A DNA stretch of 64,000 nt from Chitinophagaceae bacterium (GTDB lineage: Bacteria; Bacteroidota; Bacteroidia; Chitinophagales; Chitinophagaceae), in contig JAQBNK010000033.1 in NCBI GenBank assembly GCA_028288595.1, positions 26 through 64,025 of the forward strand, written 5' to 3'. The translations under genes and the position numbers were made by a program. Below the pieces are notes generated by a model. The model had not been told where the DNA came from. It saw nothing but the letters and a program-made list of their open reading frames with translations, and ran no database searches. The stretch's first letter is position 1, and every line of letters begins with the position of its first letter. Shown here piece after piece: positions 15,277-51,730 of this stretch.

Positions 15277-17640
15277 ATGTTTAAAAATTTCTTCAAAGTT
15301 GCAGTCAGAAACCTTGTACGGGGTAAAGGTTTTTCAATCATTAATATCTCCGGTCTTGCGATAGGTATGGCAAGCGCCGTACTTATTTTATTATGGATAC
15401 AAAATGAAGTTAGCTACGACCAGTTCCATGCAAAAAAAGACCGTATTTATGAAGCATGGAACAAAGCTGAATTCAGTGGCGATCTTAACTGCTGGAACAC
15501 TACACCCAAAGTGCTCGCCCGTTCTATGGAGCGTGACCTTCCTGAAGTAGAACAGGCTGTAAGGGTTGATTGGGGCAGTAACTTTTTATTCGGGATAGGA
15601 GACAAAAAACTTACCGTTCCGGGAAATATCGTTGACTCCAATTTTTTACAGGTGTTTAGTTTTCCTCTCCTGAAAGGAAATCCTTTAACTGTCTTAAAAG
15701 ACATGCATTCCATTGTGCTTACTGAAACGTTGGCGAAGAAACTATTCAGCGGCCAGGATGCGATGGGTAAAGTGATTAAGATAGATAACAAAGAAAACTT
15801 TACCGTAACAGGTATTCTAAAAGATCTTCCAAATAATACCAGGTTCAAATTTGAATATTTAGTACCCTGGGCATATAAGCGCTTTTTAGGTGATGATGAT
15901 CAGAACTGGGGTAACAACAGCACCCGCACTTATGTTTTATTAAAACCGAATGCCAGTGTTGCGGCGATAAATGCAAAACTTAAAACTTATAAGCGCCAGT
16001 ACGACAAAGAAGAGCCCAAATGGGAAATGTTCGTTTATCCAATGAGTAAATGGAGATTGCATTCAAGCTTTACCAATGGCGTGGAAGATGGCGGTGGAAG
16101 AATTGAGTTTGTAAGATTGTTCGGCATCATTGCTGCATTTATATTATTGATCGCCTGCATCAACTTTATGAATCTAAGCACGGCCCGCAGCGAGAAACGT
16201 GCTAAAGAAGTAGGCATCCGTAAAGTAGTTGGCGCACAAAAGATTTCTATCATAGGCCAGTTTATTGGCGAATCAATCTTACTGGCATTGGTTGCAGGTG
16301 TGCTGGCAATTTTTATTGTACAATTAAGTTTAAAAGGATTTAATGAACTCACCGACAAAAAACTATTCATTGATTACAGCAGTGTAAGCTTCTGGCTCAC
16401 AGGTATTGGCTTTATTATTTTTACAGGCATACTCGCAGGCAGTTACCCTGCATTTTTTCTTTCCTCTTTTCAGCCGGTGAAAGTCTTAAAAGGAACATTT
16501 AAAAAAGCAAATGGTTTAGTTACACCACGCAAAGTGCTGGTGGTATTACAATTTACTTTCGCTATCATATTGATCATTTGTACCATCATAGTAAAACAAC
16601 AAATAGATTATGCCCGTGACAGGGAAACCGGTTACAATAAAAACAATCTCATTTATCATTTGTTTACCGGGGATCTTGAAAAAAATTATCCTCTTATTAA
16701 AAATGAATTACTGGCATCACGGGTAGCTTCATCTGTAACAAAAACCAGCGCCCCTCCTACACAGAGCTGGAGTGATGGATGGGGACAGGAATGGGAAGGA
16801 AAAGATCCGAACGACAAAACAGATTTCTATCGTTACAATGAAGACGAGGACCTGGGAACTACTGCAGGCTTAACTTTCGTGCAGGGCCGGGATTTTAACT
16901 TAAAACAATATCCTACTGATTCCACCGGGATGATCATTAATGAATCAGCATTAAAGATCATGAAATTTAAAAATCCCATTGGAAAACTGGTAAAAGACAA
17001 TGGCCGGCAATGGCACATTGTAGGCGTGATAAAAGATTTTATTTTAACGAACCCCTATGAGCCGACGAAGCCAATGCTCATCGCCGGATCAAAAGCATGG
17101 TTTCAAACCATTCTTGTAAAATTCAATAATAAAAACCCAGTCTCCCGGAATTTAGCTAAAGCCGAGACCATCTTCAAAAAATATAACCCGGCCTATCCAT
17201 TCGAATACAAATTCGTTGATGAAGAATATGCTAAGAAATTCTCTGATGAAAAACGCACAGGTACTTTAGCAGGATTATTTGCGGGCCTCACGATCTTTAT
17301 TTCCTGTCTTGGATTATTCGGGCTCGCCACTTACATGGCGGAGAACCGCATTAAAGAAATCGGCGTACGAAAAGTATTAGGCGCATCAGTAACAAACATC
17401 ACCACACTTTTATCAAAAGACTTTTTAAAACTGGTAATCATTTCTTTTATCATCGCTTCTCCTATCGCATGGTGGGCAATGAATAAATGGTTGCAGGGAT
17501 ATAATTACAGGATCAATATACAATGGTGGGTACTTGCGCTGGCTGGGTTATTATCAGTTATGATTGCTATTGTAACGGTAAGTTACCAGGCCATCAGGGC
17601 TGCTGTTGCAAACCCGGTGAAGAGTTTAAGAACAGAATAG
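15277..17640 (+). CDS. duplicated MacB/FtsX-type ABC permease, paralogue 1
   Basis: 787 aa from ATG 15277; the track start at 15199 reads through the hairpin. MFKNFFKVAVRNL + TM1, periplasmic domain, LIACINFMNLSTARSEKRAKEVGIRKVVGA, second TM/periplasmic half, ENRIKEIGVRKVLGAS, C-terminus AVANPVKSLRTE*. Confidence 0.92.
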   Translation: MFKNFFKVAVRNLVRGKGFSIINISGLAIGMASAVLILLWIQNEVSYDQFHAKKDRIYEAWNKAEFSGDLNCWNTTPKVLARSMERDLPEVEQAVRVDWGSNFLFGIGDKKLTVPGNIVDSNFLQVFSFPLLKGNPLTVLKDMHSIVLTETLAKKLFSGQDAMGKVIKIDNKENFTVTGILKDLPNNTRFKFEYLVPWAYKRFLGDDDQNWGNNSTRTYVLLKPNASVAAINAKLKTYKRQYDKEEPKWEMFVYPMSKWRLHSSFTNGVEDGGGRIEFVRLFGIIAAFILLIACINFMNLSTARSEKRAKEVGIRKVVGAQKISIIGQFIGESILLALVAGVLAIFIVQLSLKGFNELTDKKLFIDYSSVSFWLTGIGFIIFTGILAGSYPAFFLSSFQPVKVLKGTFKKANGLVTPRKVLVVLQFTFAIILIICTIIVKQQIDYARDRETGYNKNNLIYHLFTGDLEKNYPLIKNELLASRVASSVTKTSAPPTQSWSDGWGQEWEGKDPNDKTDFYRYNEDEDLGTTAGLTFVQGRDFNLKQYPTDSTGMIINESALKIMKFKNPIGKLVKDNGRQWHIVGVIKDFILTNPYEPTKPMLIAGSKAWFQTILVKFNNKNPVSRNLAKAETIFKKYNPAYPFEYKFVDEEYAKKFSDEKRTGTLAGLFAGLTIFISCLGLFGLATYMAENRIKEIGVRKVLGASVTNITTLLSKDFLKLVIISFIIASPIAWWAMNKWLQGYNYRINIQWWVLALAGLLSVMIAIVTVSYQAIRAAVANPVKSLRTE

Positions 17641-17660
17641 AGTTAAATAGTACGAGGCGT

Positions 17661-17709
17661 GATGTACGATGTACGACTCATTCACCATTCACGATACAGG
17701 ATTCACGAT
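17661..17709. repeat. seven phased heptamers (gatgtac gatgtac gactcat tcaccat tcacgat acaggat tcacgat)
   Basis: Read directly in the 84-nt spacer between permeases 1 and 2; one 7-nt register is kept throughout. Confidence 0.85.
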
Positions 17710-17724
17710 TAGTAAAAAAATACG

Positions 17725-20106
17725 ATGATAAAAAATTATTTCAAGGTTGCATTCAGGAATCTTTCTCGTCACAAAGCGTTTTCATTTCTGAACATTATAG
17801 GTCTTGCAGCAGGAATGACGGCATGCCTTCTCATATTTCTATATATAAGTTTTGAATTGAGCTATGATAATTTTCATACTAAATCAGACCGCATCTACAG
17901 GGTAGTTGCCGATATAAAAACGCCTACTGAAACACTTAATGCAGATGGCCCGTCCTGGGCAGTAGCACCTAATGCGAAACTTGAGTTCCCGGAGATAGAA
18001 TCTGCTGTCCGCATCGCAGCCAATGGCCAGGTACTTGTGAGAAAAGGCAATATAAAATTCCAGGAGACAAGCACTGCCTGGGCTGACTCTTCATTGTTTA
18101 ACATCTTTGATTTTAAATTATTGAAAGGTGATCGAAAAACATCATTAAAAGAACCATATAGTATTGTCTTAAGTGAATCAACAGCAAGAAAATACTTCGG
18201 CAATAATGATCCCATGGGTCAAATCTTACTGGTAGACAGCGATGGTAAACCGACGAAAGTAACAGGAGTAATGAAAGATATTCCTGAGAATTCGCAGGTA
18301 AAAATGGATATCGTCATATCCATGTCAACTATTACTCAACAGTATAAAAATCTTGACAGCAGCTGGGGTGGCTATGGTTCTTACGCTTATTTCTTATTGA
18401 AGCCGGGAGTGGATCCAAAAAAATTGGAAAAAAAATTTCCGGGATTCCTGGAAAGCCGCAATGGTACACAGATGAAGAAGTCGCAAATGTACCCAACGCT
18501 TTTTCTTGAGCCTTTAAGGGACGTATACCTGCACTCGACCCGTAATGGAAGCAAAACGCCGGTAATTTCCAACGTTTACATTTTCGCCATTATTGCTGTA
18601 TTTATTTTACTGATCGCCTGCATCAATTTTATTAATCTCACTACGGCAAGATCGACTGAAAGAGCCAAAGAAGTAGGTATAAGAAAAGTGGTGGGCGCAG
18701 GAAAAAAACAACTGACCGGACAGTTTATCGGTGAGTCAATTATCCTGTGTGTAATTGCATTTTTCCTCACACTGCTTTTATCTTCTTTACTGCTGCCATT
18801 GTTTAACCAGCTAGCCGGAAAAAAGATCAGCGAAGGAATCTTTACAGACCCGCTTACGCTGTTAATGCTCCTGGGCAGTGCCATTATTATTGGTTTGCTC
18901 GCAGGTGTTTATCCTGCCCTTGTATTATCTTCTTTTAAACCGGTGATTGTTTTAAAAGGACGATTTTCTACCGGCACACGAGGCATTCTTTTAAGAAAAG
19001 GATTAGTGGTTGCACAGTTCACTATTTCAATCGCACTCATTATAGGAACTATTGTTGTCTATAAGCAAATGCATTATATGCGCACGCAGGATCTTGGTTT
19101 TAATAAAGACCAGATGCTGGTGATAGATACAGATGGCGACCCTGCAAGAACCGCTTTCTTTCAATCGTTAAATACTATTCCGCAGGTTAAATCCGCGTCC
19201 GCTTCTTCGAGTGTACCCGGCGGAGGAAACCCCGGCGCTTACTCTGAAATAGAAAATAAAAAAGGCGACCTGCAGATAGCCAACCTCGATCTTTATTTTG
19301 TTGACTTTGATTATATCAACCAGTATAAAATAAAAATTATTGCGGGCCGTGGTTTCAACAGGCAGTTTGCTACAGACACAACGCAGGCGATGGTATTAAA
19401 CGAAGCTGCGATTAAAATGTTTGGTTACACTTCTCCGCAACAGGCAATTGGCAAACGTTTTAAACAATGGGGTCGTGAAGGAAAGATCATAGGTGTAATG
19501 AAAGATTTCCATTTCCGTTCCTTGCAGCAGGAGATCAAACCGTTGAGCATGCGGATAGAGCCGGACAGATGCAATCTTATTTCTGCAAATATTTCTGGCA
19601 AAGATGTTACCGCCACTATTGCCGCAATTGAAAAAAAGTGGAAAGCGATGATCCCTAACAGGCCATTCAGTTATTATTTTCTCGATGAATTTTTCGACAG
19701 GCAGTACAGAAGCGAAGTACGCTTTGGTAATCTGTTCCTCAATTTTGCCGTACTCGCAATTCTTATTTCCTGTCTCGGCTTACTGGGTCTTGCATCTTAC
19801 AGCACTATACAAAGAACAAAAGAAATTGGCGTTAGAAAAGTAATGGGCGCAACAGTTATGGGCCTGGTAGGTATGCTGTCAAAAGATTTTTTAAAGCTGG
19901 TGTTGATCGCATTCGTGATCGCCTCTCCTATTGCGTGGTTCACCCTTTATAAATGGCTTCAAAGTTTTGCTTACAGAATTTCGTTGGGTGCAGAAGCATT
20001 TATACTCGCAGGACTTGCAGCATTATTTATTGCTGTCGCAACAGTAAGTTACCAGGCAATAAAAGCAGCGGTGGCGAACCCGGTGAAGAGTTTGAGAACG
20101 GAGTAA
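17725..20106 (+). CDS. duplicated MacB/FtsX-type ABC permease, paralogue 2
   Basis: 793 aa. MIKNYFKVAFRNL; LIACINFINLTTARSTERAKEVGIRKVVGA; QRTKEIGVRKVMGAT; C-terminus AVANPVKSLRTE*. Confidence 0.92.
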   Translation: MIKNYFKVAFRNLSRHKAFSFLNIIGLAAGMTACLLIFLYISFELSYDNFHTKSDRIYRVVADIKTPTETLNADGPSWAVAPNAKLEFPEIESAVRIAANGQVLVRKGNIKFQETSTAWADSSLFNIFDFKLLKGDRKTSLKEPYSIVLSESTARKYFGNNDPMGQILLVDSDGKPTKVTGVMKDIPENSQVKMDIVISMSTITQQYKNLDSSWGGYGSYAYFLLKPGVDPKKLEKKFPGFLESRNGTQMKKSQMYPTLFLEPLRDVYLHSTRNGSKTPVISNVYIFAIIAVFILLIACINFINLTTARSTERAKEVGIRKVVGAGKKQLTGQFIGESIILCVIAFFLTLLLSSLLLPLFNQLAGKKISEGIFTDPLTLLMLLGSAIIIGLLAGVYPALVLSSFKPVIVLKGRFSTGTRGILLRKGLVVAQFTISIALIIGTIVVYKQMHYMRTQDLGFNKDQMLVIDTDGDPARTAFFQSLNTIPQVKSASASSSVPGGGNPGAYSEIENKKGDLQIANLDLYFVDFDYINQYKIKIIAGRGFNRQFATDTTQAMVLNEAAIKMFGYTSPQQAIGKRFKQWGREGKIIGVMKDFHFRSLQQEIKPLSMRIEPDRCNLISANISGKDVTATIAAIEKKWKAMIPNRPFSYYFLDEFFDRQYRSEVRFGNLFLNFAVLAILISCLGLLGLASYSTIQRTKEIGVRKVMGATVMGLVGMLSKDFLKLVLIAFVIASPIAWFTLYKWLQSFAYRISLGAEAFILAGLAALFIAVATVSYQAIKAAVANPVKSLRTE

Positions 20107-20132
20107 ACACATAGAGGAGGCACCAAATAATT

Positions 20133-20167
20133 CAGAATTCTGAATTCTGAATTCTGAATTCCGTATT
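20133..20167. repeat. five phased heptamers (cagaatt ctgaatt ctgaatt ctgaatt ccgtatt)
   Basis: Read directly in the 83-nt spacer between permeases 2 and 3. The unit contains the GAATTC palindrome, so the run is self-complementary. Confidence 0.9.
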
Positions 20168-20189
20168 GAGTTCTGATAAAACCTGAAAT

Positions 20190-22670
20190 ATGATAAAGAA
20201 CTATTTTAAGATCGCCTGGCGAAATATACAGCGTAATAAAATGAGCAGCTTTATCCATATTTCAGGATTAAGCATCGGCATAGCCTGCGCATTAATGATC
20301 GTGATCTTTATTCAACACGAACTGAGCTATGACAAATTCCATAAAGATGCAGGCCGTATTTTCCAGGTAACGCTCAATGGCATGAACGATGGACAGGAAT
20401 ACTGGGCAGGTAATACGCCACCTCCCGTTGGTTCTGCGCTTGCCCGAAACATCCCTGAAATAGAAAGCTTCGCAAGATTTTATAAGCCAAATGATATTGT
20501 TGTTCGTTATGAGAGTAATAGTCAGTCACAAAAATCCTTCACAGAAAAAAATGTACTTGCTGTAGATTCTAATTTTTTGCAGCTCTTCGATTTTAAAGTT
20601 CTTGAAGGCGATGTTTCTACTGCTTTATTAAGGCCGGGCTCTGTTGTGCTTACAGAAGATATGGCTACAAAATATTTTGGCAATGAACGACCTGTTCTTG
20701 GCAGAACGCTTCTGCTTAACCATGACAAAAAACCCTTTACGGTAACAGCAGTATTAAAAAACGTTCCCGCAGAATCTTCTATACAATTTGATTTTCTTGC
20801 ACCAGTTGCAGACTTTCCTGTGGTAAAACGCTTTAGCTGGAGCTGGGTTTGGTTGCAAACCATGTGCTATGTAAAACTTCGCGAAGGTGTAAGAACTGAC
20901 AGAGTAAGTATTCAGCAACTGGAAGCAAAGTTTCGTCCGGTTATTAAAGTAGAATCTGTAAGTGGTTTAAAAAGACTAGGCACTTCTTACGATGAGATCA
21001 TAAAGAAAACCGGTAAATGGGATTTTCGTTTATTTCCCCTCACAGGCATTCATTTGCGTTCTGGTATAATAGGCATGCCGTGGTTAAGTAAGATCAGCGA
21101 TATTAAGTACGTCTATATTTTTGCCAGCGTTGCGCTCTTCATTATTATTCTTGCCTGCGTAAACTTCATGAATCTTTCTACTGCCCGTTCTTCTAAGAGA
21201 GCCAAAGAAGTAGGTATCCGTAAAGTCGCCGGCTCATCAAGAGGGCAATTGATCAGGCAGTTTCTTGCGGAAGCATTTTTATTCACTATTATTTCATCGA
21301 TCATCGCGGTTGCTTTGGTAATACTCTTATTAAAACCATTTGCAAATATTACTGGTGAGACCATCAATCCGAATAATGCTTTCACTCCTGCGGTTTTATT
21401 TGCAATCATAGGACTTATTATCATTATTGGTTTTCTAGCAGGAAGCTACCCGGCGTTTTATCTCACTTCATTTAAACCTGCAGCAGTTTTAAAAGGCAAA
21501 AATCTTTTCTCTTCCGGTAAAAAAAGTTTGCTGATCAGGAACGGCCTCGTTGTTTTCCAGTTTACTATCTCTTCCATTATTATCATTAGTACACTGATCG
21601 TGTGGAAGCAACTGAAATTTTTCAGAAATGCTGATATGGGATTAAATAAAGAAAATGTACTCGTGATCACCAGCACAAACAGGCTCGGTAAAAGCGAGGA
21701 GAGTTTTCGTGAGACCATCAGCCAGTTACCCGGTGTAAGCAATGCAAGTATTTCAACCAGCATTCCTACCGGTTCTCTTTTTGGAGATGGATATGAGCCC
21801 AAAGCGGAAAATAATGAGCATATCGCCAGGGAAATCGCCCTGTCTTCTTTTATGGTAGACGAGGCTTTTGTACCGACATTAAAAATAAAAGTTTTAAAAG
21901 GCCGGAACTTTTCAAAAGCATTTTCAGATTCTGCTTCTGTCGTTCTAAATGAAGAAGCTGCAAAACAGATCGGGTGGAAGGATCCTGTTGGTAAATGGAT
22001 ACAATATCCCGGTAATAATAACCAGCTTTTCCAGGTGATAGGCGTTGTAAAAAACTTCAATGTACAATCGCTGCAAAATTCGATGATACCTTTTGCACTG
22101 TTTCATACATCTTCCCGAACTTATGATATCGGGGTGTCTCATATCCTTGCAAGAATACGGCCCGGCAATATCAACAATACGATCAGTCAACTGGAAAGTA
22201 AATGGAAATCATTTGCCCCGGGCGAACCATTTGATTACAATTTCCTCGATGCAGAGTTCGATTCGCAGTACCGTTCTGAACAACGCTTAGGAAAATTATT
22301 CAGCGTATTCGCCGGCCTTTCCATTTTTATCGCCTGCCTTGGTTTATTTGGCTTATGTGCATTTGTTGCAGAGAGACGAACGAAAGAAATCGGCATTCGC
22401 AAAGTATTGGGCGCATCTGTTCAGAGCCTTGTTAGCTTATTATCAAAAGACTTTTTAAAACTGACTATAGCTGCAGCCTTGATCTCTTTTCCTGTTGCAT
22501 GGTGGGCCATGCATAAATGGCTGGAAGATTTTGCGTACAGGATAAATATTGGCTGGACAGTATTCGTCATAGCCGGGTTAAGCATCTTATTGATAGCACT
22601 TGCAACCATCAGCTTCCAGGCGATAAAAGCAGCGGTTGCCAATCCTGTAAAAAGTTTAAGAACTGAATAA
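20190..22670 (+). CDS. duplicated MacB/FtsX-type ABC permease, paralogue 3
   Basis: 826 aa. MIKNYFKIAWRNI; ILACVNFMNLSTARSSKRAKEVGIRKVAGS; ERRTKEIGIRKVLGAS; C-terminus AVANPVKSLRTE*. Confidence 0.92.
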   Translation: MIKNYFKIAWRNIQRNKMSSFIHISGLSIGIACALMIVIFIQHELSYDKFHKDAGRIFQVTLNGMNDGQEYWAGNTPPPVGSALARNIPEIESFARFYKPNDIVVRYESNSQSQKSFTEKNVLAVDSNFLQLFDFKVLEGDVSTALLRPGSVVLTEDMATKYFGNERPVLGRTLLLNHDKKPFTVTAVLKNVPAESSIQFDFLAPVADFPVVKRFSWSWVWLQTMCYVKLREGVRTDRVSIQQLEAKFRPVIKVESVSGLKRLGTSYDEIIKKTGKWDFRLFPLTGIHLRSGIIGMPWLSKISDIKYVYIFASVALFIIILACVNFMNLSTARSSKRAKEVGIRKVAGSSRGQLIRQFLAEAFLFTIISSIIAVALVILLLKPFANITGETINPNNAFTPAVLFAIIGLIIIIGFLAGSYPAFYLTSFKPAAVLKGKNLFSSGKKSLLIRNGLVVFQFTISSIIIISTLIVWKQLKFFRNADMGLNKENVLVITSTNRLGKSEESFRETISQLPGVSNASISTSIPTGSLFGDGYEPKAENNEHIAREIALSSFMVDEAFVPTLKIKVLKGRNFSKAFSDSASVVLNEEAAKQIGWKDPVGKWIQYPGNNNQLFQVIGVVKNFNVQSLQNSMIPFALFHTSSRTYDIGVSHILARIRPGNINNTISQLESKWKSFAPGEPFDYNFLDAEFDSQYRSEQRLGKLFSVFAGLSIFIACLGLFGLCAFVAERRTKEIGIRKVLGASVQSLVSLLSKDFLKLTIAAALISFPVAWWAMHKWLEDFAYRINIGWTVFVIAGLSILLIALATISFQAIKAAVANPVKSLRTE

Positions 22671-22699
22671 AGTAAAAAATAACATAATACGATCAAAAC

Positions 22700-25123: not shown

Positions 25124-25127
25124 GGCG

Positions 25128-25162
25128 AATGAGTGATGAGTAATGAGTGATGAGAAATGAGC
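25128..25162. repeat. five phased heptamers aatgagt gatgagt aatgagt gatgaga aatgagc, starting 5 nt after the stop
   Basis: Read directly. TGA trinucleotides at 25130, 25137, 25144, 25151 and 25158 fall in all three reading frames. Confidence 0.9.
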
Positions 25163-25215
25163 CCGGAAACACTTTGGTAATTCGACAATTGAATAAATTT
25201 TATAAACCCTGAGTT

Positions 25216-27642: not shown

Positions 27643-27708
27643 TGAGTAATGAGGGATGAGATGAGTAATGAATGAGTAGAAATTATAGTGCTTATATAAA
27701 TCAAAAGA

Positions 27709-30123: not shown

Positions 30124-30246
30124 TATCTGAACGGGGATTTGGGGGATTTAAAAGATTTGAAGGAAAAGGCAATTCAACAATTTGGTAATTCGACAATTTG
30201 ACAATGGCCTGGAGAAAATGCAAATACTAAACAAACTATGAATGAG

Positions 30247-35386: not shown

Positions 35387-35436
35387 TCTTAATAATAAGC
35401 AAAACTTAAACATTCTACACCAGCTAATACTTTTTT

Positions 35437-37965: not shown

Positions 37966-38016
37966 GTCAAAATTAAAAATTCAAAAGCACCGCCCTTTTG
38001 ACTTTTGAATTTTGAC
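37966..38016 (+). repeat. AT-rich 22-bp (20/22) hairpin built from t(t/c)(a/c)aaaa heptamers
   Basis: gtcaaaattaaaaattcaaaag (37966-37987), loop caccgcc, cttttgacttttgaattttgac (37995-38016). It ends 27 nt before the paralogue 10 start. Confidence 0.8.
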
Positions 38017-38043
38017 TTATCACCATACACAAAACCTGCTCTT

Positions 38044-40455: not shown

Positions 40456-40478
40456 GGAATGAGTAATGAGGAATGAGG
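40451..40478. repeat. four phased heptamers aatgagg aatgagt aatgagg aatgagg; the first contains the gene's own stop codon
   Basis: Read directly; the stop TGA at 40453-40455 is part of unit 1. Confidence 0.9.
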
Positions 40479-40558
40479 GAATGCAAGCTGCAAATTGACC
40501 ATTGAAAATTGAGCATTGAGCATTTAAAATAAATTGGTGAAATAAATTTCAGCGGGGC

Positions 40559-40585
40559 TGTGTATCAAAAACGTACACCTGTTGT
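40559..40585. promoter_or_regulatory. conserved palindromic element, copy B
   Basis: tgtgtatcaaaaacgtacacctgttgt. It matches copy A in 25/27 positions, and similarity continues for about 18 more nt. It lies in the 235-nt gap before paralogue 11, 132 nt upstream of ATG 40691. Confidence 0.55.
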
Positions 40586-40690
40586 ACGGAAACGAACGAA
40601 CCTGTATATATTATTGATCATAAATGGCTGTTTTTCAATAATATACAAACAGGCATCATTTATTCATATACAAAGAAAAATTCCTGCTTC

Positions 40691-43147: not shown

Positions 43148-43215
43148 AAGAGCAAACAACTTGCAAGGTTGTCGACTCTACAATATAAAATCAGGAAACA
43201 CCAAAAACTACAACC

Positions 43216-45609
43216 ATGTTTACTAACTACTTTAAGATCGCATGGCGCTATTTATTAAAGACCAAGTTATATGCGCTGGTAAATATTCTGGGCCTTGCGC
43301 TTGGAATGACAAGCTGCCTGCTGATCGGTATCTACATTTTTAATGAACTGAGTTTCGATCATTTTAATAAGAATGCAAACAGGATAGTTCGTGCAACGAT
43401 GGATTATAATTCCGGCGATGCACCGAATACCACAGCAATGACCGGAACTAAGGTTGGACCGCAATTCAAAAGAACGTTTCCGCAGGTAGAAGCTTATGTA
43501 CGTACTATAAAGTACCCAAGAGTAATTGGTTATAAGGATAAAGTTTTCGATGAGAAACGGTTTCTCTATGCAGACCCTGCGTTTTTTAATGTCTTCTCAT
43601 TTAAACTGCTGAATGGTAATGCTGCAACAGTATTGGATGCGCCTGATAAAATAGTGCTGACACAATCCATGTCGAAGAAATATTTTGGTGATGAAAATCC
43701 CATAGGAAAAACGGTGACGGTGGGAATCAAACAATTGATTGTTTCAGGTATTGCAGCGGATGCTCCGAATAATTCACAGATCAAATTTGACTTTGTAAGT
43801 TCTTTTATGGGGTTTAGCTCAGCTAAAGAAGAAAAATGGTGGGAAGCGAATTATATCACTTATCTCCTGTTGCATAACGCCAGCGATATTCCTGTACTGC
43901 AAAAGCAGGTGGCCGGTTATATGAAAACAGTAAGCAGGGATGAATTGAAAATGACAGGTGCTAACAATTATCTTACTTATCATTTAGAGCCTTTTTTGAA
44001 AGTTCATTTGTATTCTTCGCTTGAAGGATTAGAGCCTAACAATAATATTTTATACATCTATATTTTGGGCATCGTTGCAATTTTAATTTTACTGATCGCC
44101 TGCGTGAATTATACGAACCTGAGTACCGCACAGGCCGCGGGCAGAAGCGCAGAAGTAGGCATGCGTAAGGTAATGGGTGCAGGAAAAATGCAGGTGTTTT
44201 ACCAGTTTATCTGTGAATCATTTTTGCTTACCCTCATTGCAGTTATCACCGGTGTTGTTCTTTCATTGATACTGCTCCCTTATTTTAATCAACTCTCAGG
44301 ACAGGAACTTACAACGGGTGTATTGTTTCATCCCGTGACTATCATTTCCTTATTACTACTTGCCATTATTGTCGCATTTATGGCAGGCGCTTATCCTGCA
44401 ATCGTTCTTTCGAATGGAAAGATTATACAGGTGTTAAAAAGCGGCTTCAATTTTACAGGCGGAAGTACCTTGAGAAAAACCCTGATCGTATTCCAGTTTA
44501 CGATTTCTATTTTTCTCATCATTGCAACGATTGTAATTCTGCAACAACTTTCATATGTGAGAAATAAGGACCTCGGTTATGATAAAGAGCACATACTTGT
44601 TCTTCCCGTGGACAGGAAGATGAGCCCTGATTATGACGCTATAAGAGCAGCCATCGCATCAGCACCTAATGTTGTTTCTGTGGCCGGAGCTTATGAAACA
44701 CCCACTGATATTGGCTGGGGGGATGGTATGCACAAGGGCACCGGTGATAATGAAAAAAGTGTAACGGTAAATGCATTTCCTGTTGATGAACATATTGTAA
44801 AAACACTGGGGCTTAGAATTATCGCGGGAAGTGATTATACAAATGCAGATGTGCAACAATTCGATACAAGTAACGGCGGTGAAAACCTTCACTATACTTA
44901 TATGCTGAATGAATCTGCTGTTAAAGCATTAGGCTGGACGCCGCAGGAAGCAATTGGCAAAACGATCACAAAAGGAAGAAGTGGGGTAGTTAAAGCAGTG
45001 ATCAAAGATTTTCATTTACATTCTTTTCATGAGCCCATCAATCCGCTCGTCGTATTTCTTGATAAGAGAATGGTACTCTCCATGTTTGTTAAGATATCAG
45101 GGAAAGATGTGCAGTCGACCCTGAATAGTCTTCAAAAAGTTTGGAAACAGCGGGTAACACATCGCCCTTTCGATTATCATTTTTTAGATGAAGAATATGA
45201 TGCGATGTACAAAACAGAACAACGCACTGCAGGTGTTTTCACCACGTTCGCCTCTCTTGCCATTCTGCTTGCATGTCTCGGGCTATTTGCACTCACGGCT
45301 TATACAATGGTACAGCGCACTAAAGAGATCGGCATAAGGAAAGTATTGGGGGCAACTATCCCTGATATTCTTTCCTTGGTGTCGAAAGACTTTTTGAAAC
45401 TTGTAATTCTTGCCCTGGTAATTGCTGTTCCTGTTGGATACTATGCAACCAATAAGTGGCTCGACAACTTTAGCTATAAAATAAGTATCACTCCATGGGT
45501 TTTTATAATTGCAGGGCTCGCAACTATAATTATTGCTTTTATAACGATCAGCGCACAGGCTATAAAAACAGCGATGGCTAACCCGGTGAAGAGCTTGAGA
45601 ACGGAATGA
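43216..45609 (+). CDS. duplicated MacB/FtsX-type ABC permease, paralogue 12
   Basis: 797 aa. MFTNYFKIAWRYL; NLSTAQAAGRSAEVGMRKVMGA; VQRTKEIGIRKVLGAT; C-terminus AMANPVKSLRTE*. Confidence 0.92.
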   Translation: MFTNYFKIAWRYLLKTKLYALVNILGLALGMTSCLLIGIYIFNELSFDHFNKNANRIVRATMDYNSGDAPNTTAMTGTKVGPQFKRTFPQVEAYVRTIKYPRVIGYKDKVFDEKRFLYADPAFFNVFSFKLLNGNAATVLDAPDKIVLTQSMSKKYFGDENPIGKTVTVGIKQLIVSGIAADAPNNSQIKFDFVSSFMGFSSAKEEKWWEANYITYLLLHNASDIPVLQKQVAGYMKTVSRDELKMTGANNYLTYHLEPFLKVHLYSSLEGLEPNNNILYIYILGIVAILILLIACVNYTNLSTAQAAGRSAEVGMRKVMGAGKMQVFYQFICESFLLTLIAVITGVVLSLILLPYFNQLSGQELTTGVLFHPVTIISLLLLAIIVAFMAGAYPAIVLSNGKIIQVLKSGFNFTGGSTLRKTLIVFQFTISIFLIIATIVILQQLSYVRNKDLGYDKEHILVLPVDRKMSPDYDAIRAAIASAPNVVSVAGAYETPTDIGWGDGMHKGTGDNEKSVTVNAFPVDEHIVKTLGLRIIAGSDYTNADVQQFDTSNGGENLHYTYMLNESAVKALGWTPQEAIGKTITKGRSGVVKAVIKDFHLHSFHEPINPLVVFLDKRMVLSMFVKISGKDVQSTLNSLQKVWKQRVTHRPFDYHFLDEEYDAMYKTEQRTAGVFTTFASLAILLACLGLFALTAYTMVQRTKEIGIRKVLGATIPDILSLVSKDFLKLVILALVIAVPVGYYATNKWLDNFSYKISITPWVFIIAGLATIIIAFITISAQAIKTAMANPVKSLRTE

Positions 45610-45612
45610 AAA

Positions 45613-45646
45613 TAATTTGACAATTCGGCAATTTGAAAATTTGAAA
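45613..45646. repeat. left copy of the direct repeat bracketing the DUF4097 gene
   Basis: taatttgacaattcggcaatt + tgaaaatttgaaa. The 21-mer is identical to 46725-46745, and the 18-mer caatttgaaaatttgaaa is identical to 46757-46774. Confidence 0.9.
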
Positions 45647-45683
45647 ATTAATACACAGACATACAACTCTAAAACAAAACAAT

Positions 45684-46727
45684 ATGAAAAAATATCTTTT
45701 ACTAATTGCACTGGTTGCCTTTGCAATAAATACGAAGGCGCAGCGCAATGAGGAAGAACCTTATATGACAAAGTCCCTGAAGAGCGATAATATAAAAAAC
45801 GTTGAAGTAAGAACTTCTGGTGGAAGTATCGGCGTAACGGGTATTACTTCAGGTGAAGCACGTATTGAAGTTTATATCTGGCCAAATAATAGCCGGGATG
45901 GAAATAGAATAACTAAAGAAGAAATTGACCGGCGACTACAAAACTATGATCTGAATATATCATCGGCAAATAACAAACTAACCGCTACTGCAAAAAGAAA
46001 AAAGCGTGAAGATGATGACTGGAAAGACGGCCTGAGTATTTCATTTAAAATTTTCGTTCCTGTAAATATTACTACTGATCTTTCAACGAGCGGAGGAAGT
46101 ATTGCCCTGGTTAATGTAACCGGTAAACAGGATTTTGCTACCAGTGGCGGAAGTCTTCGTATTGACAAGGTGAGTGGTAATGTACACGGCCGCACTTCAG
46201 GCGGAAGCATACATGTAACAGATTCTAAGGATGACCTGGATCTTAGTACAAGTGGCGGAAGCATTGATGCAAGGAACTGTAAAGGCATTCTTAAATTAAA
46301 TACATCGGGCGGGTCTCTTAACCTCGAGCAATTAGGCGGAACCATCACCGCACATACCAGTGGCGGAAGCATTCATGGCAGTAATATCGAAGGCGATCTT
46401 AGTACACATACATCAGGCGGAAGCGTTAAACTTTCTGATCTCAGCGGCAGCGTGGATGCATCTACCAGCGGAGGAAGTATGGACGTAACAATCAGCAACC
46501 CGTCTAAGTTCGTCAAGCTCCATAATTCTAGCGGCAGCATCGACGTTACGCTTCCCGGTAACAAAGGATACGATCTCAGGTTGTCTGGTAACCGCGTTAA
46601 AACACCCACACTGAATAATTTTAAAGGAACAATGGACGATGATTCCGTTAATGGCAGTATTAATGGTGGTGGTATTCCTGTTACTATTAATGCAGGCAGC
46701 GGAAGAGTTTATTTGACACTTAAGTAA
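45684..46727 (+). CDS. secreted DUF4097 (Toastrack-type) beta-repeat protein
   Basis: 347 aa. It has a signal peptide (MKKYLLLIALVAFAINTKAQ) followed by about 10 repeats of the (T/S)SGGS(I/L/V/M) strand motif at roughly 20-aa spacing, typical of the DUF4097 putative-adhesin beta-helix. Confidence 0.8.
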   Translation: MKKYLLLIALVAFAINTKAQRNEEEPYMTKSLKSDNIKNVEVRTSGGSIGVTGITSGEARIEVYIWPNNSRDGNRITKEEIDRRLQNYDLNISSANNKLTATAKRKKREDDDWKDGLSISFKIFVPVNITTDLSTSGGSIALVNVTGKQDFATSGGSLRIDKVSGNVHGRTSGGSIHVTDSKDDLDLSTSGGSIDARNCKGILKLNTSGGSLNLEQLGGTITAHTSGGSIHGSNIEGDLSTHTSGGSVKLSDLSGSVDASTSGGSMDVTISNPSKFVKLHNSSGSIDVTLPGNKGYDLRLSGNRVKTPTLNNFKGTMDDDSVNGSINGGGIPVTINAGSGRVYLTLK

Positions 46728-46818
46728 TTTGACAATTCGGCAATTCAACAATTCAACAATTTGAAAATTTGAAACTTAATTCGGGGTTTCATTGTCGAGT
46801 TGCCGAATTGTTGAATTG
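46725..46818. repeat. right copy of the direct repeat (with a 16-nt word expansion) plus its inverted partner
   Basis: 46725-46774 matches the left copy, with an extra caattcaacaattcaa-type insert. ttgccgaattgttgaattg (46800-46818) is the reverse complement of words in 46732-46754, giving alternative 12-14-bp stems. Confidence 0.8.
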
Positions 46819-46836
46819 ATTAATAAAAAACAAAAC

Positions 46837-49254
46837 ATGCTTAGAAACTATCTGAAAGTTGCCATGCGTTACCTCGTAAGACACAAAGGTTATACGATCA
46901 TAAATATTCTTGGGCTTGCAGTGGGCATTACCTGCTGCATTCTTATTATGCTTTTTGTGAAAAGTGAATGGAGCTACGATAAATTTCATAGTAAGTCAGA
47001 CCGGTTGTACCGTGCATGGGTAAAAGAGAAATACCAGAAAGAAGATTTTATCGACATCACTACACCGGTAGTAATGGCTCCGACATTGCAAAGCAATTTT
47101 CCTGAAATAGAATCTACATGCAGGGTCGCTGCATTCAATAGCATTTTTAAATCCGGCGTAACATCGTTCAATGAAAACCTCAGGATGGTAGATTCCACTT
47201 TCTTTCGTGTTTTTGATTTTGAATTAATTAAAGGTGATAGAAAGAATCCGTTTCCAACCAGCAATTCAATCATACTTACAGAAAAACTGGCAAAAAAATA
47301 TTTTGGCAACAGCGATCCTGTAGGAAAGAGCATTGAACTGCAAATGAGTCTTGATACGGTTGTTTTTTCTGTATCCGGAATTGCAAAAGAGGCACCGGTA
47401 GAATCGAGTATTCGTTACACTGCTTTAATTCCTTTTTCTAACGCAAAATCCTATTTCAGTAAGAATGCGATGAGGAGCTGGTTCAATATTAATCCTGAGA
47501 CATATGTATTGCTGGGCAAAGGAGTAAACCCGAAACAGCTTGAAGCGAAGTTTCCATCAATGCTGAAACAGCAGTTGGGGGCAGACTATAAGCCGGGGAA
47601 TTATATCATCAACTTACAACCGATGACAACTATTCACCTGGATGCTTCGCTGCCCGACCAGGGAATTGAAAATATAAGCAACCCAAAATATTCTTACATC
47701 CTATTAACCATTGGCTTTCTTATTTTATTTATTGCCTGTATCAATTTTATTACGTTGTCTCTTGGCCGCTCTACCAGCAGGGCGATGGAAGTTGGCGTAA
47801 GAAAAGTATTAGGGGCAGAACGCAGGCAGATCATCAGGCAGTTCTGGGGCGAAGCGATATTGTTAACACTGGTCTCTGTTGTTATCGGGATAATCTTCGC
47901 TGCCGTATTTGTAAAGCCGTTTAATACTTTGATCAACCGCGAACTAGTTCTCCGTCCCGATCTTTTCTTTATCGGTTTTTGTTTATTGCTTATTGTGATT
48001 ATTGGTATGATAGCAGGTATTTATCCTGCATTAATACTTTCCTCTTTCAAACCTGTTGAAGTATTAAAAGGAAAATTAAAGCTGAGTAATAACAGCAGTA
48101 TTTTCCGGAAGAGCCTTATAACAGGACAGTTTGTTGTTTCTATTGCAATGATAGTTTGCACACTTGTAATAGGTCAGCAAATGAATTACCTGCAGAATAA
48201 AGATCTTGGGTATGGAAAGGAACAGGTTGTTGTAGTATCAACTCATAAACCTGTTTCAAAAGGAATGCCTCTCGCTGAGTTATTCCGCAATGAGCTGCAA
48301 AAAATACCACAGGTTGCAAGCGCTTCCGTAGCACTTTACAGTATGGCGCAGACACCATGGATCGACCTGGGGTATACAGACGATAAAAAGATATACAGAA
48401 CGTTCCAGTTTAATGCCGTAGATCCGCAATTTATTCCGACCATGAAAATTCAAATGGTTCAGGGAAGAAATTTCTCAGCGGATAATGCTTCAGACGCAAC
48501 TACTGCTATGGTAGTGAATGAGTCGCTGGTAAAACAATATGGCTGGAAAGATGCTATCGGCAAAAAGTTACCCGGCAAGTTTGAGCAGCAGATCATTGGT
48601 GTAATGAAAGACTTTAATTACGAATCCCTTCATACAAAAATTCAACCATTGGTATTGGTAATTAAACCGGATAGTGTTTACCGGCGTATCGAGAATATAA
48701 ATGTAGCGGCACCACGGCAACCCAGGATTTCGGTGCGCATGAAAGCAGGAAGTATTACCGCGAACATTGCTATGCTAAAACAAGCCTGGAAAAAAGTAGC
48801 CGGTGAGCAGGAGTTCGATTACACCTTCCTCGATGAAAATATTGCAGCGCAATATGAGCAGGAGAAACGCACCAGCACCATTGTAAAACTGGCATCCGGA
48901 CTTTCCATTTTTATCGCCTGCATGGGATTGTTTGGTTTAGCCACACTTGCAGTAGTAAGAAGAACAAAAGAGATAGGCATAAGAAAAGTTTTAGGAGCGA
49001 GTACGCAGAGCATTGTTTCGCTGATATCAAAAGAATTTATCACACTGGTAGTGTTAGCGGCCATTATTGCTTTTCCGCTTGCATGGATGTTCCTGAATAA
49101 ATGGCTCGGGGATTTTGCTTACCGGATCGATATCAACTGGTGGGTATTTATACTTGCAGCTTTCATCGCTATAGTAATTACGCTTCTTACAGTTGGATTC
49201 CAGGCAATAAAAGCAGCCCTTTCTAACCCGGTGAAAAGTTTAAGAACGGAATGA
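46837..49254 (+). CDS. duplicated MacB/FtsX-type ABC permease, paralogue 13
   Basis: 805 aa from ATG 46837. MLRNYLKVAMRYL; ITLSLGRSTSRAMEVGVRKVLGA; VRRTKEIGIRKVLGAS; C-terminus ALSNPVKSLRTE*. Confidence 0.92.
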   Translation: MLRNYLKVAMRYLVRHKGYTIINILGLAVGITCCILIMLFVKSEWSYDKFHSKSDRLYRAWVKEKYQKEDFIDITTPVVMAPTLQSNFPEIESTCRVAAFNSIFKSGVTSFNENLRMVDSTFFRVFDFELIKGDRKNPFPTSNSIILTEKLAKKYFGNSDPVGKSIELQMSLDTVVFSVSGIAKEAPVESSIRYTALIPFSNAKSYFSKNAMRSWFNINPETYVLLGKGVNPKQLEAKFPSMLKQQLGADYKPGNYIINLQPMTTIHLDASLPDQGIENISNPKYSYILLTIGFLILFIACINFITLSLGRSTSRAMEVGVRKVLGAERRQIIRQFWGEAILLTLVSVVIGIIFAAVFVKPFNTLINRELVLRPDLFFIGFCLLLIVIIGMIAGIYPALILSSFKPVEVLKGKLKLSNNSSIFRKSLITGQFVVSIAMIVCTLVIGQQMNYLQNKDLGYGKEQVVVVSTHKPVSKGMPLAELFRNELQKIPQVASASVALYSMAQTPWIDLGYTDDKKIYRTFQFNAVDPQFIPTMKIQMVQGRNFSADNASDATTAMVVNESLVKQYGWKDAIGKKLPGKFEQQIIGVMKDFNYESLHTKIQPLVLVIKPDSVYRRIENINVAAPRQPRISVRMKAGSITANIAMLKQAWKKVAGEQEFDYTFLDENIAAQYEQEKRTSTIVKLASGLSIFIACMGLFGLATLAVVRRTKEIGIRKVLGASTQSIVSLISKEFITLVVLAAIIAFPLAWMFLNKWLGDFAYRIDINWWVFILAAFIAIVITLLTVGFQAIKAALSNPVKSLRTE

Positions 49255-49277
49255 GGGATGAGGAATGAGTAATAAGT
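49250..49277. repeat. four phased heptamers aatgagg gatgagg aatgagt aataagt; the first contains the stop codon
   Basis: Read directly; the stop TGA at 49252-49254 is in unit 1. Confidence 0.9.
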
Positions 49278-49297
49278 AAACTACTAAATGATATATT

Positions 49298-51730
49298 ATG
49301 CTACTGATGTATTTTAAAATAGCGTGGCGAAACTTGCTGAAACATAAAAGTTTTTCCTTCATTAATATTTTCGGTTTAACTACAGGACTTAGTTGTTTCC
49401 TGTTAATAGCACTCTATATTTTTGATGAACTTACTTATGACCGCTTCAATAAGAATGCAGATGCTATGTACCGCATCGTTGAAGACAAGACTTCGGCTGA
49501 AGGAAAACAATCGAAGGTTGCAGCAGTAGCCTATAATATATCTGAACGGGCAAAGAAAGATTTTCCTGAAGTAGAGAATGCTACGAGGTTTAGTATGCTT
49601 GGAAGATCTAATGTGCTGAATAATGAGAATACATCTGTCTTTTATGAATCTTATTTTGTTAGTGACGAATCATTCTTTCGCATGTTCGATTTTCATTTCC
49701 TCCAGGGAGACCGTACTACAGCGTTAAAAGACCCTTATACTGTTGTAATAACAGATGAAACAGCAAAGAAAATATTCGGAACGGAAAACGCTATTGGAAA
49801 AGTGATCAGGACAGACAGGGACAGCACACCATACAAGATCACGGGCATTGTAAATATTCCTGCCAACTCACACCTTAATTTCAATCTTGTTTTTTCTGAA
49901 GCAACCTTATTTGCTTCAGAAAACTTTAAAAAATTTATGACCAGCGACTGGTCCTCTAATACTTTTGTAAGTTACCTGCAGTTGAAAAAAAATACTAATG
50001 CAAGCGTAGTCAGTGATAAGATAAACCAGCTGGTTAAAGCGAACAGGGAGAAGAAAGCGGCCGGCACATCGTCGCTCTATCTTCAGCCTTTAACTGCCAT
50101 TCATTTTTATTCTGAAGGAATTGATAGTTCAGAAAACTCCGGCAACATAACACACATGTATGTTTTTGGGATCGTCGCCCTGTTTGCCTTACTGATAGCC
50201 TGCATTAATTATATGAATCTTACTACTGCAAGATTTTCAGGCAGGTCAAAAGAAATAGCAGTGCGAAAAGTGGCTGGTGCATCGCAGCGAACTTTAATGT
50301 TCCAGTTCCTGTCTGAGTCTTTCCTTGTTACCATTATTGCGTTAATATTTTCCCTTGCACTGGTGAAACTTACATTACCCTGGTTCAATTCATTCACAGA
50401 AAAAAAATTATCGCTAGGCACTGATACAGACTACCGCATCTGGATGGGTATCGTTTTCATTACCATTTTCACCAGTATCATTTCCGGTATTTATCCCGCG
50501 CTTTTCCAGTCGCGTTTAAAACCTTACCTCCTGCTCAAAAACAAACTGGCAGGTATAAAAGGGAACATTTCATTAAGAAAAGTTTTAGTGATATTCCAGT
50601 TTGCCGTTTCTATTATTATGATCATATCAACCATTATTGTTTACCAGCAATTGCAATATGTAAACAAAAAAGATATGGGCTTCAATAAAGAGCAATTACT
50701 GGTTGTAGATATTAATAGCGGTGCAGTGAGGAGGTCTGCAGAAACCATCAAATCTGAGTTCAGTAAAATAGCTGCGGTTAAATCTGTAAGTGTTACATCC
50801 CGTGTGCCAGGCGAATGGAAAGTGATACCAAAAGTTAAAGTAAAAAAAGATGCGCAGGCAGGTAGCGGAGAGGACATGTATTTTATGAGCGCTGATGAAC
50901 AGTTTCTCAAAACCTTTGCTGTACAGTTACAGAGTGGCAGAAATTTTACGAATTCGAACAGTGATTCCGGTGCAGTAATGATCAATGAAACAGCAGCAAA
51001 AATATTAGGCATTAACAAACCATCGGAGCAGGTGATATCGATTCCCAGTATAGACTTTAGCGGAAACGTTTCTTCTCTCAGGCAACCTTATGTTGCAAGG
51101 GTTATCGCAATCGTAAAAGATTTTAACTTTCAGTCACTGCGGCAAACAATAGCGCCGATGGTCATCAGCTACCAGAAAAATCCTGTACACAACATTGATT
51201 ATTTTACTGCCAGGATATCTTCGGCGCATACAGATGCTATACTTCAACAAATGAAAGCTGTTTTAGCCAATATTGATCCGTCGCATCTGTTCGAATATAA
51301 TTTCCTCGATAAGCAATGGGAAGTGTTTTACAGGGAAGACCAAAAAAGAGAAACCATATTTCTCGGAGTAGCCTTCATCACAATACTGATCGCTTGTATG
51401 GGCCTGTTCGCTTTAGCCACTTATGCGGCTGAACAACGCACTAAAGAAATAGGGATTAGAAAAGTCTTAGGGGCCAGCGTTCCGGTTCTCGTTACACTTC
51501 TATCCAAAGATTTTTTAAAACTCGTATTGATCGCAGATGTTATAGCCTTCCCTGTTGCACTCTGGGCCATGAAAAGCTGGCTGAAAGATTTTGCTTACCG
51601 GGTAAACATCAGCTGGTGGGTATTTGTGCTGGCAGGCGCGGCAGCATTGATCATTGCTTTTGTAACAGTCAGTTTCCAGGCGATTAAAGCTGCCATGTCT
51701 AACCCGGTTAAAAGTTTGAGAACGGAATAG
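49298..51730 (+). CDS. duplicated MacB/FtsX-type ABC permease, paralogue 14
   Basis: 810 aa. MLLMYFKIAWRNL; NLTTARFSGRSKEIAVRKVAGA; EQRTKEIGIRKVLGAS; C-terminus AMSNPVKSLRTE*. Confidence 0.92.
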   Translation: MLLMYFKIAWRNLLKHKSFSFINIFGLTTGLSCFLLIALYIFDELTYDRFNKNADAMYRIVEDKTSAEGKQSKVAAVAYNISERAKKDFPEVENATRFSMLGRSNVLNNENTSVFYESYFVSDESFFRMFDFHFLQGDRTTALKDPYTVVITDETAKKIFGTENAIGKVIRTDRDSTPYKITGIVNIPANSHLNFNLVFSEATLFASENFKKFMTSDWSSNTFVSYLQLKKNTNASVVSDKINQLVKANREKKAAGTSSLYLQPLTAIHFYSEGIDSSENSGNITHMYVFGIVALFALLIACINYMNLTTARFSGRSKEIAVRKVAGASQRTLMFQFLSESFLVTIIALIFSLALVKLTLPWFNSFTEKKLSLGTDTDYRIWMGIVFITIFTSIISGIYPALFQSRLKPYLLLKNKLAGIKGNISLRKVLVIFQFAVSIIMIISTIIVYQQLQYVNKKDMGFNKEQLLVVDINSGAVRRSAETIKSEFSKIAAVKSVSVTSRVPGEWKVIPKVKVKKDAQAGSGEDMYFMSADEQFLKTFAVQLQSGRNFTNSNSDSGAVMINETAAKILGINKPSEQVISIPSIDFSGNVSSLRQPYVARVIAIVKDFNFQSLRQTIAPMVISYQKNPVHNIDYFTARISSAHTDAILQQMKAVLANIDPSHLFEYNFLDKQWEVFYREDQKRETIFLGVAFITILIACMGLFALATYAAEQRTKEIGIRKVLGASVPVLVTLLSKDFLKLVLIADVIAFPVALWAMKSWLKDFAYRVNISWWVFVLAGAAALIIAFVTVSFQAIKAAMSNPVKSLRTE

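Follow-up and report, generated by a model that had tools for sequence, protein, structure and literature searches.

The stretch of DNA analysed here (the window: 64,000 nt of contig JAQBNK010000033.1, designated C101, one of the 190 contigs of a 4.14 Mb Chitinophagaceae genome) harbours, between positions 15277 and 51730, an array of 14 paralogous permease genes of the ATP-binding cassette (ABC) type. All 14 open reading frames (ORFs) are intact, lie on the forward strand and code for proteins of 793–826 aa once their starts are corrected, namely X01 (15277–17640), X02 (17725–20106), X03 (20190–22670), X04 (22700–25123), X05 (25216–27642), X06 (27709–30123), X07 (30371–32758), X08 (32890–35316), X09 (35437–37854), X10 (38044–40455), X11 (40691–43147), X12 (43216–45609), X13 (46837–49254) and X14 (49298–51730). 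For X07, X10 and X13 the conserved start was adopted, the ORF listing beginning at 30242, 38005 and 46792, respectively. On the same strand, the array is preceded by the genes for a HlyD/DarC-like periplasmic adaptor (12891–14147; Pfam HlyD_3, and NCBIfam RND_mfp with 122 bits, over the cut-off) and for an ABC ATPase of the MacB/LolD/DarD type with canonical motifs, here termed A1 (14496–15182; ABC_tran, E = 2e-38), which ends 94 nt upstream of X01. It is followed, 215 nt downstream of X14, by a second ABC ATPase gene, A2 (51946–52617), and, starting 3 nt after it, by the gene for a TolC-like outer-membrane factor (52621–54060; Pfam OEP, E = 2e-44).

Pfam analysis of X02, taken as the reference copy, and of X14 detected two MacB_PCD (PF12704) and two FtsX (PF02687) domains in each protein (E from 1e-23 to 1e-34), and the same composition was found in all 14 permeases. 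When the N-terminal half of each protein was aligned by BLASTP with its own C-terminal half, 23–35% identity was obtained in 14/14 cases (E from 3e-4 to 2e-14), confirming the internal tandem duplication proposed in a preliminary description of the array. The AlphaFold2 (AF2) model of X02 (pLDDT 81.3, pTM 0.72) has 8 transmembrane (TM) helices, no linker TM helices and a low-confidence linker of about 8 residues (409–419), with short cytoplasmic helices at residues 314–323, 406–410, 698–706 and 786–792 that coincide with the conserved motifs described below. The two periplasmic domains, PCD1 (17860–18564) and PCD2 (19087–19680), are 235 and 198 aa in length. Foldseek searches with this model retrieved YbbAP as the top match (9GE6, E = 1.7e-18), followed by MacB (E = 9e-15), LolCDE, BceAB and HrtBA, and the periplasmic domain matched 3IS6 with a TM-score of 0.79. 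As in type VII ABC transporters, an FtsX domain comes after a large extracytoplasmic domain lying between TM1 and TM2, in agreement with the AF2 topology. By domain, motif and fold, the array permeases are members of the type VII (MacB/FtsX) ABC superfamily. Each permease consists of two four-helix FtsX units joined head-to-tail, which together give 8 TM helices, and each half carries one MacB-type periplasmic domain; the protein thus mimics the MacB dimer in a single polypeptide.

The conserved motifs reported in the preliminary description were recovered with minor corrections. All 14 proteins end in A-x-(A/S)-N-P-V-(K/R/N)-S-L-R-(T/S)-E followed by the stop codon, and in 11/14 the last residues are NPVKSLRTE, the exceptions being X04 (...SLRSE), X05 (NPVNSLRTE) and X09 (NPVRSLRTE). 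The cognate motif closing the first half was found as F(K/Q/N/S)P(V/I/A)xxLK in 11 of the 14 proteins; its presence stands, while the pattern originally given was slightly too strict, deviating copies being X07 (LY), X12 (GKIIQVLK) and X14 (LKPYLLLK). The loop KE(V/I)G(I/V)RK..G, placed after the first FtsX helix, was present in both halves as stated, the second copy, R(T/I/V)KE(I/V)G(I/V)RKV(L/M)GA(S/T/N), being nearly invariant. The periplasmic segments, described as sharing scattered residues only, indeed share 27–29% identity between paralogues, with an A(K/E)KYFG motif in most copies.

HMMER alignments to the solved MacB-type proteins 5LIL, 5NIK and 5XU1 span both conserved motifs. In both halves R(A/T)KE(V/I)G(I/V)RK..GA aligns on MacB RTREIGIRMAVGA / RTKEIGVRMAIGA, while FKPVIVL and AIKAAVANPVKSLR align on the MacB C-terminus (ARNAARLDPVDAL; AKKAAELNPITALA) and on that of Spr0695 (ANKASKLDPIEALRY). 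The counterparts in the C-terminal minor helix of MacB read ..LNPITALA and ..LDPVDAL, i.e. ..(L/N)(D/N)P(V/I)xAL, and a single-FtsX protein encoded elsewhere in the genome ends in ...LDPIVALRYE. In MacB the major coupling helix, which connects TM2 with TM3, relays conformational changes of the nucleotide-binding domain (NBD) to the transmembrane domains, and both it and the C-terminal minor helix touch the NBD in solved structures (PMC5985334); in YbbP, a fused homologue, the two pseudo-halves have a coupling helix each, with which they engage one YbbA apiece (PMC12646458). Since they align to the MacB coupling helices, the two motifs are to be regarded as the canonical docking elements of the superfamily, which supports the earlier reading of them as MacB-type NBD-docking elements. 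In X02 these elements correspond to major coupling helix 1 (18661–18702), minor helix 1 (18931–18957), major coupling helix 2 (19813–19854) and the C-terminal minor helix (20074–20103). The motif pattern in itself is ordinary for the family; it is already known biology and adds nothing new on MacB-type transporters.

The 14 paralogues are 31–48% identical over the whole protein, and conservation differs strongly among segments. Identity was 0.27 in PCD1, 0.29 in PCD2 and 0.34–0.57 in the TM helices, 0.56–0.66 in major coupling helix 1, 0.70–0.87 in helix 2 and 0.85–0.92 in the C-terminal motif. The proportion of non-synonymous differences, scanned in 827 sliding 10-codon windows, was lowest at the C-terminus (pN 0.05, versus a mean of 0.45) and next lowest in coupling helix 2. 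Synonymous sites were saturated across the paralogues, C-terminus included (pS 0.67–0.95); the C-terminal pS of 0.67 falls at the 5th percentile of the windows (mean 0.77) and is still near saturation. Within the last 14 codons, three to four synonymous codons are in use for each of A, P, V, L and T. The same C-terminal peptide was found in about 100 copies from eight other genera. With pN at its lowest where pS is saturated, the docking motifs are conserved at the protein level, in line with the strong purifying selection previously suggested for the docking surfaces.

Phylogenetic analysis of 103 (later 135) family members grouped each array paralogue with sequences of other genera, apart from the adjoining array members, thus indicating that the duplications are older than the genera. 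The closest homologue of X02 found anywhere showed 77% identity by BLASTP (78% in the MAFFT alignment), and within Chitinophagaceae named homologues were found in Ginsengibacter, Ferruginibacter, Foetidibacter and Segetibacter. As dS was saturated in every available comparison (the paralogues and 14 cross-genus orthologue pairs), dN and identity ratios were used, and no dN/dS. In the 14 orthologue pairs, identity and dN were 0.54 and 0.38 in the PCDs, 0.68 and 0.24 in the TM helices, and 0.80 and 0.16 in the coupling elements. In the best-sampled lineage, X02 with its 40 orthologues at 70–78% identity (41 sequences), the PCDs are 0.75–0.77 identical, above TM3, TM4, TM7 and TM8 (0.67–0.68). 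Orthologue identity divided by paralogue identity gave 2.7–2.8 in the PCDs, against about 1.0 in coupling helix 2 and 0.9 at the C-terminus. These values indicate that one and the same constraint acts on the docking elements of all paralogues, and that the PCDs are under a purifying constraint specific to each lineage.

The array is not peculiar to this genome. Of the 30 relatives examined, 10 carry 8–33 full-length permeases each, and all 10 have exactly one A2 (78–83% identity), one A1 and one adaptor orthologue (68–77%), a weaker second adaptor-like match in G005 (62% identity) having an in-frame TGA. Among the same 30, relatives devoid of permeases have no orthologue of A1, A2 or the adaptor. 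In G005, which has 33 permeases, 17 copies are distributed in three loci without any ATPase gene. At the level of the phylum, A2 was detected in 54/251 sampled Bacteroidota genomes (30/126 genera), in single copy every time, and all 54 fall among the 86 genomes having permeases that resemble the 'acidobacterial duplicated orphan permease' (ADOP) family. In 27 of the 32 permease-bearing genomes without A2, just 1–2 permease matches were found; in this survey 3 candidates were scored per genome, which caps the counts at 3, and they are read only as permeases being present or being at least two in number. Other families have the same A1-(permease)n-A2 arrangement, in complete cassettes of n = 4, 8 and about 9, and a fourth genome shows 13 permeases followed by A2, the A1 end lying beyond the region fetched. 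Identity between genera was about 90% for A1, about 81% for A2 and 50–73% for the permease orthologues. Throughout the phylum A2 has LSGGQQQ(L/I) in place of LSGGQQQR and an asparagine replacing the D-loop aspartate (NLN), with intact Walker A, Walker B-E and H-loop, a conserved asymmetry relative to A1. Genes for the tripartite-pump parts (HlyD_3/RND_mfp adaptor and OEP) are part of the locus, with a one-to-one relation of adaptor and array at the level of genes. Sharing of the ATPases among the paralogues is well supported by this 1:1:1:n gene stoichiometry (one A1, one A2 and one adaptor for 8–33 permeases), with which the original claim that the paralogues dock the same ATPases fits; the paralogues would most likely share ATPases, adaptor and channel physically.

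The distribution of the cassette is patchy, as it is missing from 7 of 18 genera of the same family and from 12/12 sampled genomes of other families in the order. It is nonetheless present in several other classes, and a Pedobacter protein is 71% identical to X02. Such a distribution suggests loss and/or horizontal transfer of whole arrays. Six further family copies are located outside the array in the genome (contigs C39: 66–3338, C130: 38343–41460, C10, C183 and C189); the C130 copy is accompanied by an A1-like ATPase of its own, C39 holds a system split into two single-FtsX genes that follow an ATPase gene, and three copies are solitary. Their C-termini, among which SPVKNLKQD, DPAKSLRTE and NPVTSLRAE, deviate more than those of any array member.

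Comparison among distant lineages showed a variant of the C-terminal motif peculiar to each of them and carried by most or all of its paralogues: NPVKSLR(T/S)E in the array family, NPV(E/D)ALRYE in lineage f33 and NPV(E/D/K/N)SLKSE in lineage f37. Paralogues of the distant lineages interleave with those of the array at well-supported nodes (e.g., the seven copies of genome G053 fall in six clades), and the lineage variants are written in varied synonymous codons. Lineage-specific motifs shared by interleaved paralogues are the pattern expected if the whole family co-evolves with one common partner. Moreover, the charge at position 5 of the motif tracks the A2 residue following ETPLLY: where this is Q or L the permeases have K (mean net position-5 charge +0.58, 7 genomes), and where it is K or R they are acidic or mixed (−0.35, 28 genomes; p = 8e-4 in a Mann-Whitney test without phylogenetic correction). 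The equivalent residue of A1 is T or L regardless of the motif charge.

Explanations other than selection on shared docking surfaces were considered for the motif identity and the segmental contrast. That the motifs are identical because of recent duplication or gene conversion, i.e. concerted evolution at the DNA level, would be compatible with genes in tandem on one strand, with the comparatively low C-terminal pS and with tail codons that are identical in two G053 copies. However, paralogues that diverged to the extent reported above, with saturated synonymous sites, three to four codons per residue within the motif and nearer relatives in other genera than in their own array, make this explanation very unlikely, and for recent events it is largely refuted. 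The preliminary description had also suggested that heptamer runs beginning in the final GAA-TGA codons constrain the 3' end at the DNA or RNA level. Indeed, six of the seven TGA-ending genes pass directly into (A/G)ATGAG-type heptamers, but the other seven, with TAA or TAG as stop codon, lack such a run and still encode the same peptide, as do the copies in other genera; moreover, the repeat overlaps only the last codon and the stop, and heptamer/octamer runs occur in intergenic spacers throughout the window. The suggestion must therefore be abandoned as extremely improbable: together with the saturated pS and the varied codons, the occurrence of the motif in TAA/TAG genes and in other genera leads us to reject both recent gene conversion and the heptamer constraint. 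As for the periplasmic domains, previously termed hypervariable and diversifying, positive selection (e.g., in an arms race with antimicrobial compounds) might be suspected, since they are the least conserved part between paralogues (27–29% identity, dN about 0.84). Against this, their identity within the 41 sequences of the X02 orthologue group at least equals that of several TM helices, their dN in the 14 cross-genus pairs, with saturated dS, points to purifying selection, and both are still strongly recognised by Pfam. Ongoing diversification is thus unlikely, and the label does not hold: the PCDs belong to ancient paralogues, being 75–77% identical among X02 orthologues versus 27–29% between paralogues, which indicates an old specialisation under purifying selection.

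Two further alternatives concern the docking reading itself. The C-terminal motif might be kept for a reason unrelated to docking, such as membrane insertion, topology, or a role as a tag for degradation or quality control. Two observations lend it some weight, and both also count against an origin of the conservation in NBD docking: the position of the C-terminal helix at the NBD interface is assigned by homology and AF2 confidence is low (45–57) at residues 784–793, and deletion of the minor helix in E. coli MacB had a modest effect only (PMC5985334), so that the extreme conservation observed here is not fully explained by the known MacB data. Nevertheless, the motif is homologous to the C-termini of MacB, Spr0695 and LolC/E-type proteins, which contact the NBD in structures, and its cognate also closes the first half, where, being internal, it cannot be a C-terminal tag; a non-docking role appears highly improbable. 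Alternatively, the permeases may not share both ATPases, with A1 homodimers powering all of them and A2, whose gene is coupled to the TolC-like one, having a separate job, or with subsets using A1, A2 or ATPases of other loci. Solitary duplicated permeases do run with one ATPase, as at the C130 locus of this genome and in DarBCD (PMC8442675), and the asymmetry between N-half and C-half motifs is also seen in the solitary C130 copy. On the other side, every genome examined that bears an array has A1 and A2 in a one-to-one relation, the two ATPase genes flank the array in several families, A2 is confined to permease-carrying genomes, and charge covariation with the C-terminal motif is observed for A2 only. 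We hold such a division of labour to be improbable, while granting it an appreciable chance. Three other points speak against a motor common to all copies: other MacB-type ATPases of the genome (C130, C39 and C47) could serve some of them; the lineage variants of the motif could stem from ancient gene conversion followed by synonymous decay; and the charge covariation rests on about three independent contrasts, with two exceptions (G221 and G148).

Taken together, the locus is probably best explained as a set of 14 anciently diverged type VII permeases having ATPases, adaptor and channel in common and, for this reason, conserved docking motifs. According to this explanation, the common parts encoded at the array ends, i.e. 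the adaptor and A1 upstream and A2 and the TolC-like channel downstream, would be used by all paralogues, and the docking motifs would be constant because every paralogue uses that one set. The docking elements are the major coupling helix after TM2 and TM6 (KE(I/V)G(I/V)RK..GA) and the minor helix after TM4 and TM8 (..P(V/I)xxLK and NPVKSLRTE, respectively); through them each half may grip one ATPase subunit, and ATP-driven closure would be passed on to the periplasmic domains by mechanotransmission. The periplasmic domains split long ago into separate lineages, each conserved since, and specificity for substrates or partners probably resides in them. The paralogues would handle different ligands, and efflux is the presumed activity.

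The charge covariation with A2, and not with A1, is a hint that the C-terminal helix lies towards A2, in which case the motor would be an A1/A2 heterodimer. We know of no heterodimeric NBD pair described for type VII ABC systems. It may be tentatively proposed that the locus encodes a modular machine, in which any of 8–33 interchangeable fused permease heads can be fitted to a single set of A1/A2 heterodimer, adaptor and TolC-like channel, the two halves of each head docking different ATPases and the C-terminal helix lying on A2; this is possible, although we do not consider it the probable outcome. If true, the whole permease family of a genome would co-evolve in concert with that motor. The asymmetry between the N-half and C-half motifs was considered as evidence for a heterodimer and rejected, the solitary C130 copy, with its single neighbouring ATPase, showing the same asymmetry.

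Among characterised systems, MacB of MacAB-TolC (PDB 5LIL, 5GKO, 5NIK) resembles the array permeases in its four-TM FtsX unit with a Porter/Sabre-type periplasmic domain between TM1 and TM2, in its major coupling helix (RTKEIGxR..GA) and C-terminal minor helix (..P(V/I)xxL), and in its adaptor and TolC, to which adaptor and TolC-like genes correspond at the array locus. However, MacB is the homodimeric product of one gene with a fused N-terminal NBD, whereas the array permeases have two units per chain, separate NBD proteins of two kinds and 14 permease genes. The ADOP family (TIGR03434) is similar in size (about 800 aa), in having two FtsX and two MacB_PCD domains and in forming large paralogous families, with many copies lacking an adjacent ATPase. 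As the family is described, ADOP genes essentially never adjoin an ABC ATPase gene, hence the term orphan. The array permeases align full-length to the ADOP model (positions 5–803) but score 276–351 bits versus a cut-off of 622.3, and their host belongs to the Bacteroidota; the model gave 22 matches in this genome, three of them partial (69–214 bits), and its cut-off was exceeded in only 1/251 genomes of the phylum. With genes for dedicated ATPases, an adaptor and an outer-membrane factor on its two sides, the array locus is not orphan; the interior array copies and the dispersed G005 copies, having no adjoining ATPase gene, are orphan-like.

A genomic island of Psychroflexus torquis harbours a 42-kb cluster of about ten ADOP paralogues, whose proteins are abundant in the proteome (PMC3914696). 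Likened by description only, it is a Bacteroidota tandem ADOP-like cluster with neighbouring transporter genes; unlike the present array, it was noted in passing in 2014, with no analysis of motifs, orthology or ATPase stoichiometry (PMC3914696), and in the literature on such permease arrays we found this one passing description and no other. The darobactin exporter DarBCD is a tripartite ABC system that spans the envelope and has a duplicated permease, and in NCBIfam searches DarB was the second-best match for the permease after ADOP, DarD the best for both ATPases and DarC among the top ones for the adaptor. The equivalog cut-offs of DarB, DarC and DarD (700, 450 and 375 bits) were missed by a wide margin, the scores being 116–125 bits for the permease, 155 for the adaptor, and 304 and 246 for A1 and A2. 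DarBCD differs in having one permease and one ATPase, and no gene for a ribosomally synthesised and post-translationally modified peptide precursor or for a radical S-adenosylmethionine protein is present at the array locus. The best structural match, E. coli YbbAP(-TesA) (PDB 9GE6-8), is a fused, pseudo-symmetric type VII permease with two NBD copies and one coupling helix per half. YbbP nevertheless has 10 TM helices, two of them linkers, versus 8 in the X02 model, and the YbbAP system has a single ATPase species, TesA as partner and neither adaptor nor TolC; sequence identity with the array permeases is 14%, and the YbbP hidden Markov model scored only 18 bits. A shared motor would have a precedent in MsmK/MsiK of carbohydrate ABC importers, where one 'multitask' ATPase serves many membrane subunits encoded elsewhere and needs conserved docking motifs. 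Those systems are, however, type I importers with EAA-loop docking and an unrelated permease fold, and are not tripartite.

As regards the surroundings of the array, the genes for a histidine kinase (9904–11247; Pfam HATPase_c, E = 5e-21, and a weak PAS) and for a sigma-54-dependent response regulator of REC-AAA+-HTH_8 organisation (11237–12613; Sigma54_activat, E = 4e-67, Response_reg and HTH_8) lie on the reverse strand and run divergently from the permease locus. The canonical sigma-54 promoter TGGCAC-N5-TTGC had 0 matches in the window, and a relaxed pattern was no commoner there than expected by chance. A 25-nt element, TGTATCAAAA(C/A)CGTACACCTGTTGT, was found at 12690–12714, upstream of the adaptor gene, and at 40561–40585, in the long X10–X11 spacer, with 0 and 1 mismatch and a chance expectation of none; a looser copy (CTGTATCAAAACCGGACACC) occurs near position 51830, in the X14–A2 spacer. 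The only non-permease gene within the array, between X12 and X13 (45684–46727, forward strand), encodes a secreted LiaG/DUF4097-like protein with about ten TSGGS(I/L) repeats (NCBIfam LiaG, E = 1e-8, below the cut-off) and without any Pfam match at E ≤ 0.001. A 63-aa ORF (14227–14418) in the 348-nt gap between adaptor and A1, with a signal-peptide-like N-terminus (MKLLIHLPLLAFCLSLTG...), was considered as a candidate substrate and rejected for lack of conservation in relatives, 2 of 4 of which have small ORFs that look alike but are unrelated to it. Finally, most intergenic spacers are made up of 7- or 8-nt words repeated in short tandem runs and belonging to several unrelated families (e.g., 1880–1991, 2525–2646, 14148–14167, 17661–17710, 20129–20161, 25128–25161, 40449–40524, 45614–45649, 46711–46774 and 56794–56840). 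Occurring window-wide and not confined to the permease array, these runs look like a genome-wide spacer habit of the organism.

The locus is a widespread, uncharacterised variant of the MacB-type tripartite pump, with a probably shared chassis and two ATPases. The A2-bearing system occurs in about a fifth of the sampled Bacteroidota genomes, and its gene arithmetic is unusual, in that one adaptor, one channel and two distinct ATPases are found for up to dozens of ancient permease paralogues. The array represents a concrete and testable case for a 'one motor, many heads' envelope machine, and its family a natural experiment on the co-evolution of a hub ATPase with many partners. If the periplasmic domains set specificity, the family would constitute a ready-made specificity panel on a constant chassis.

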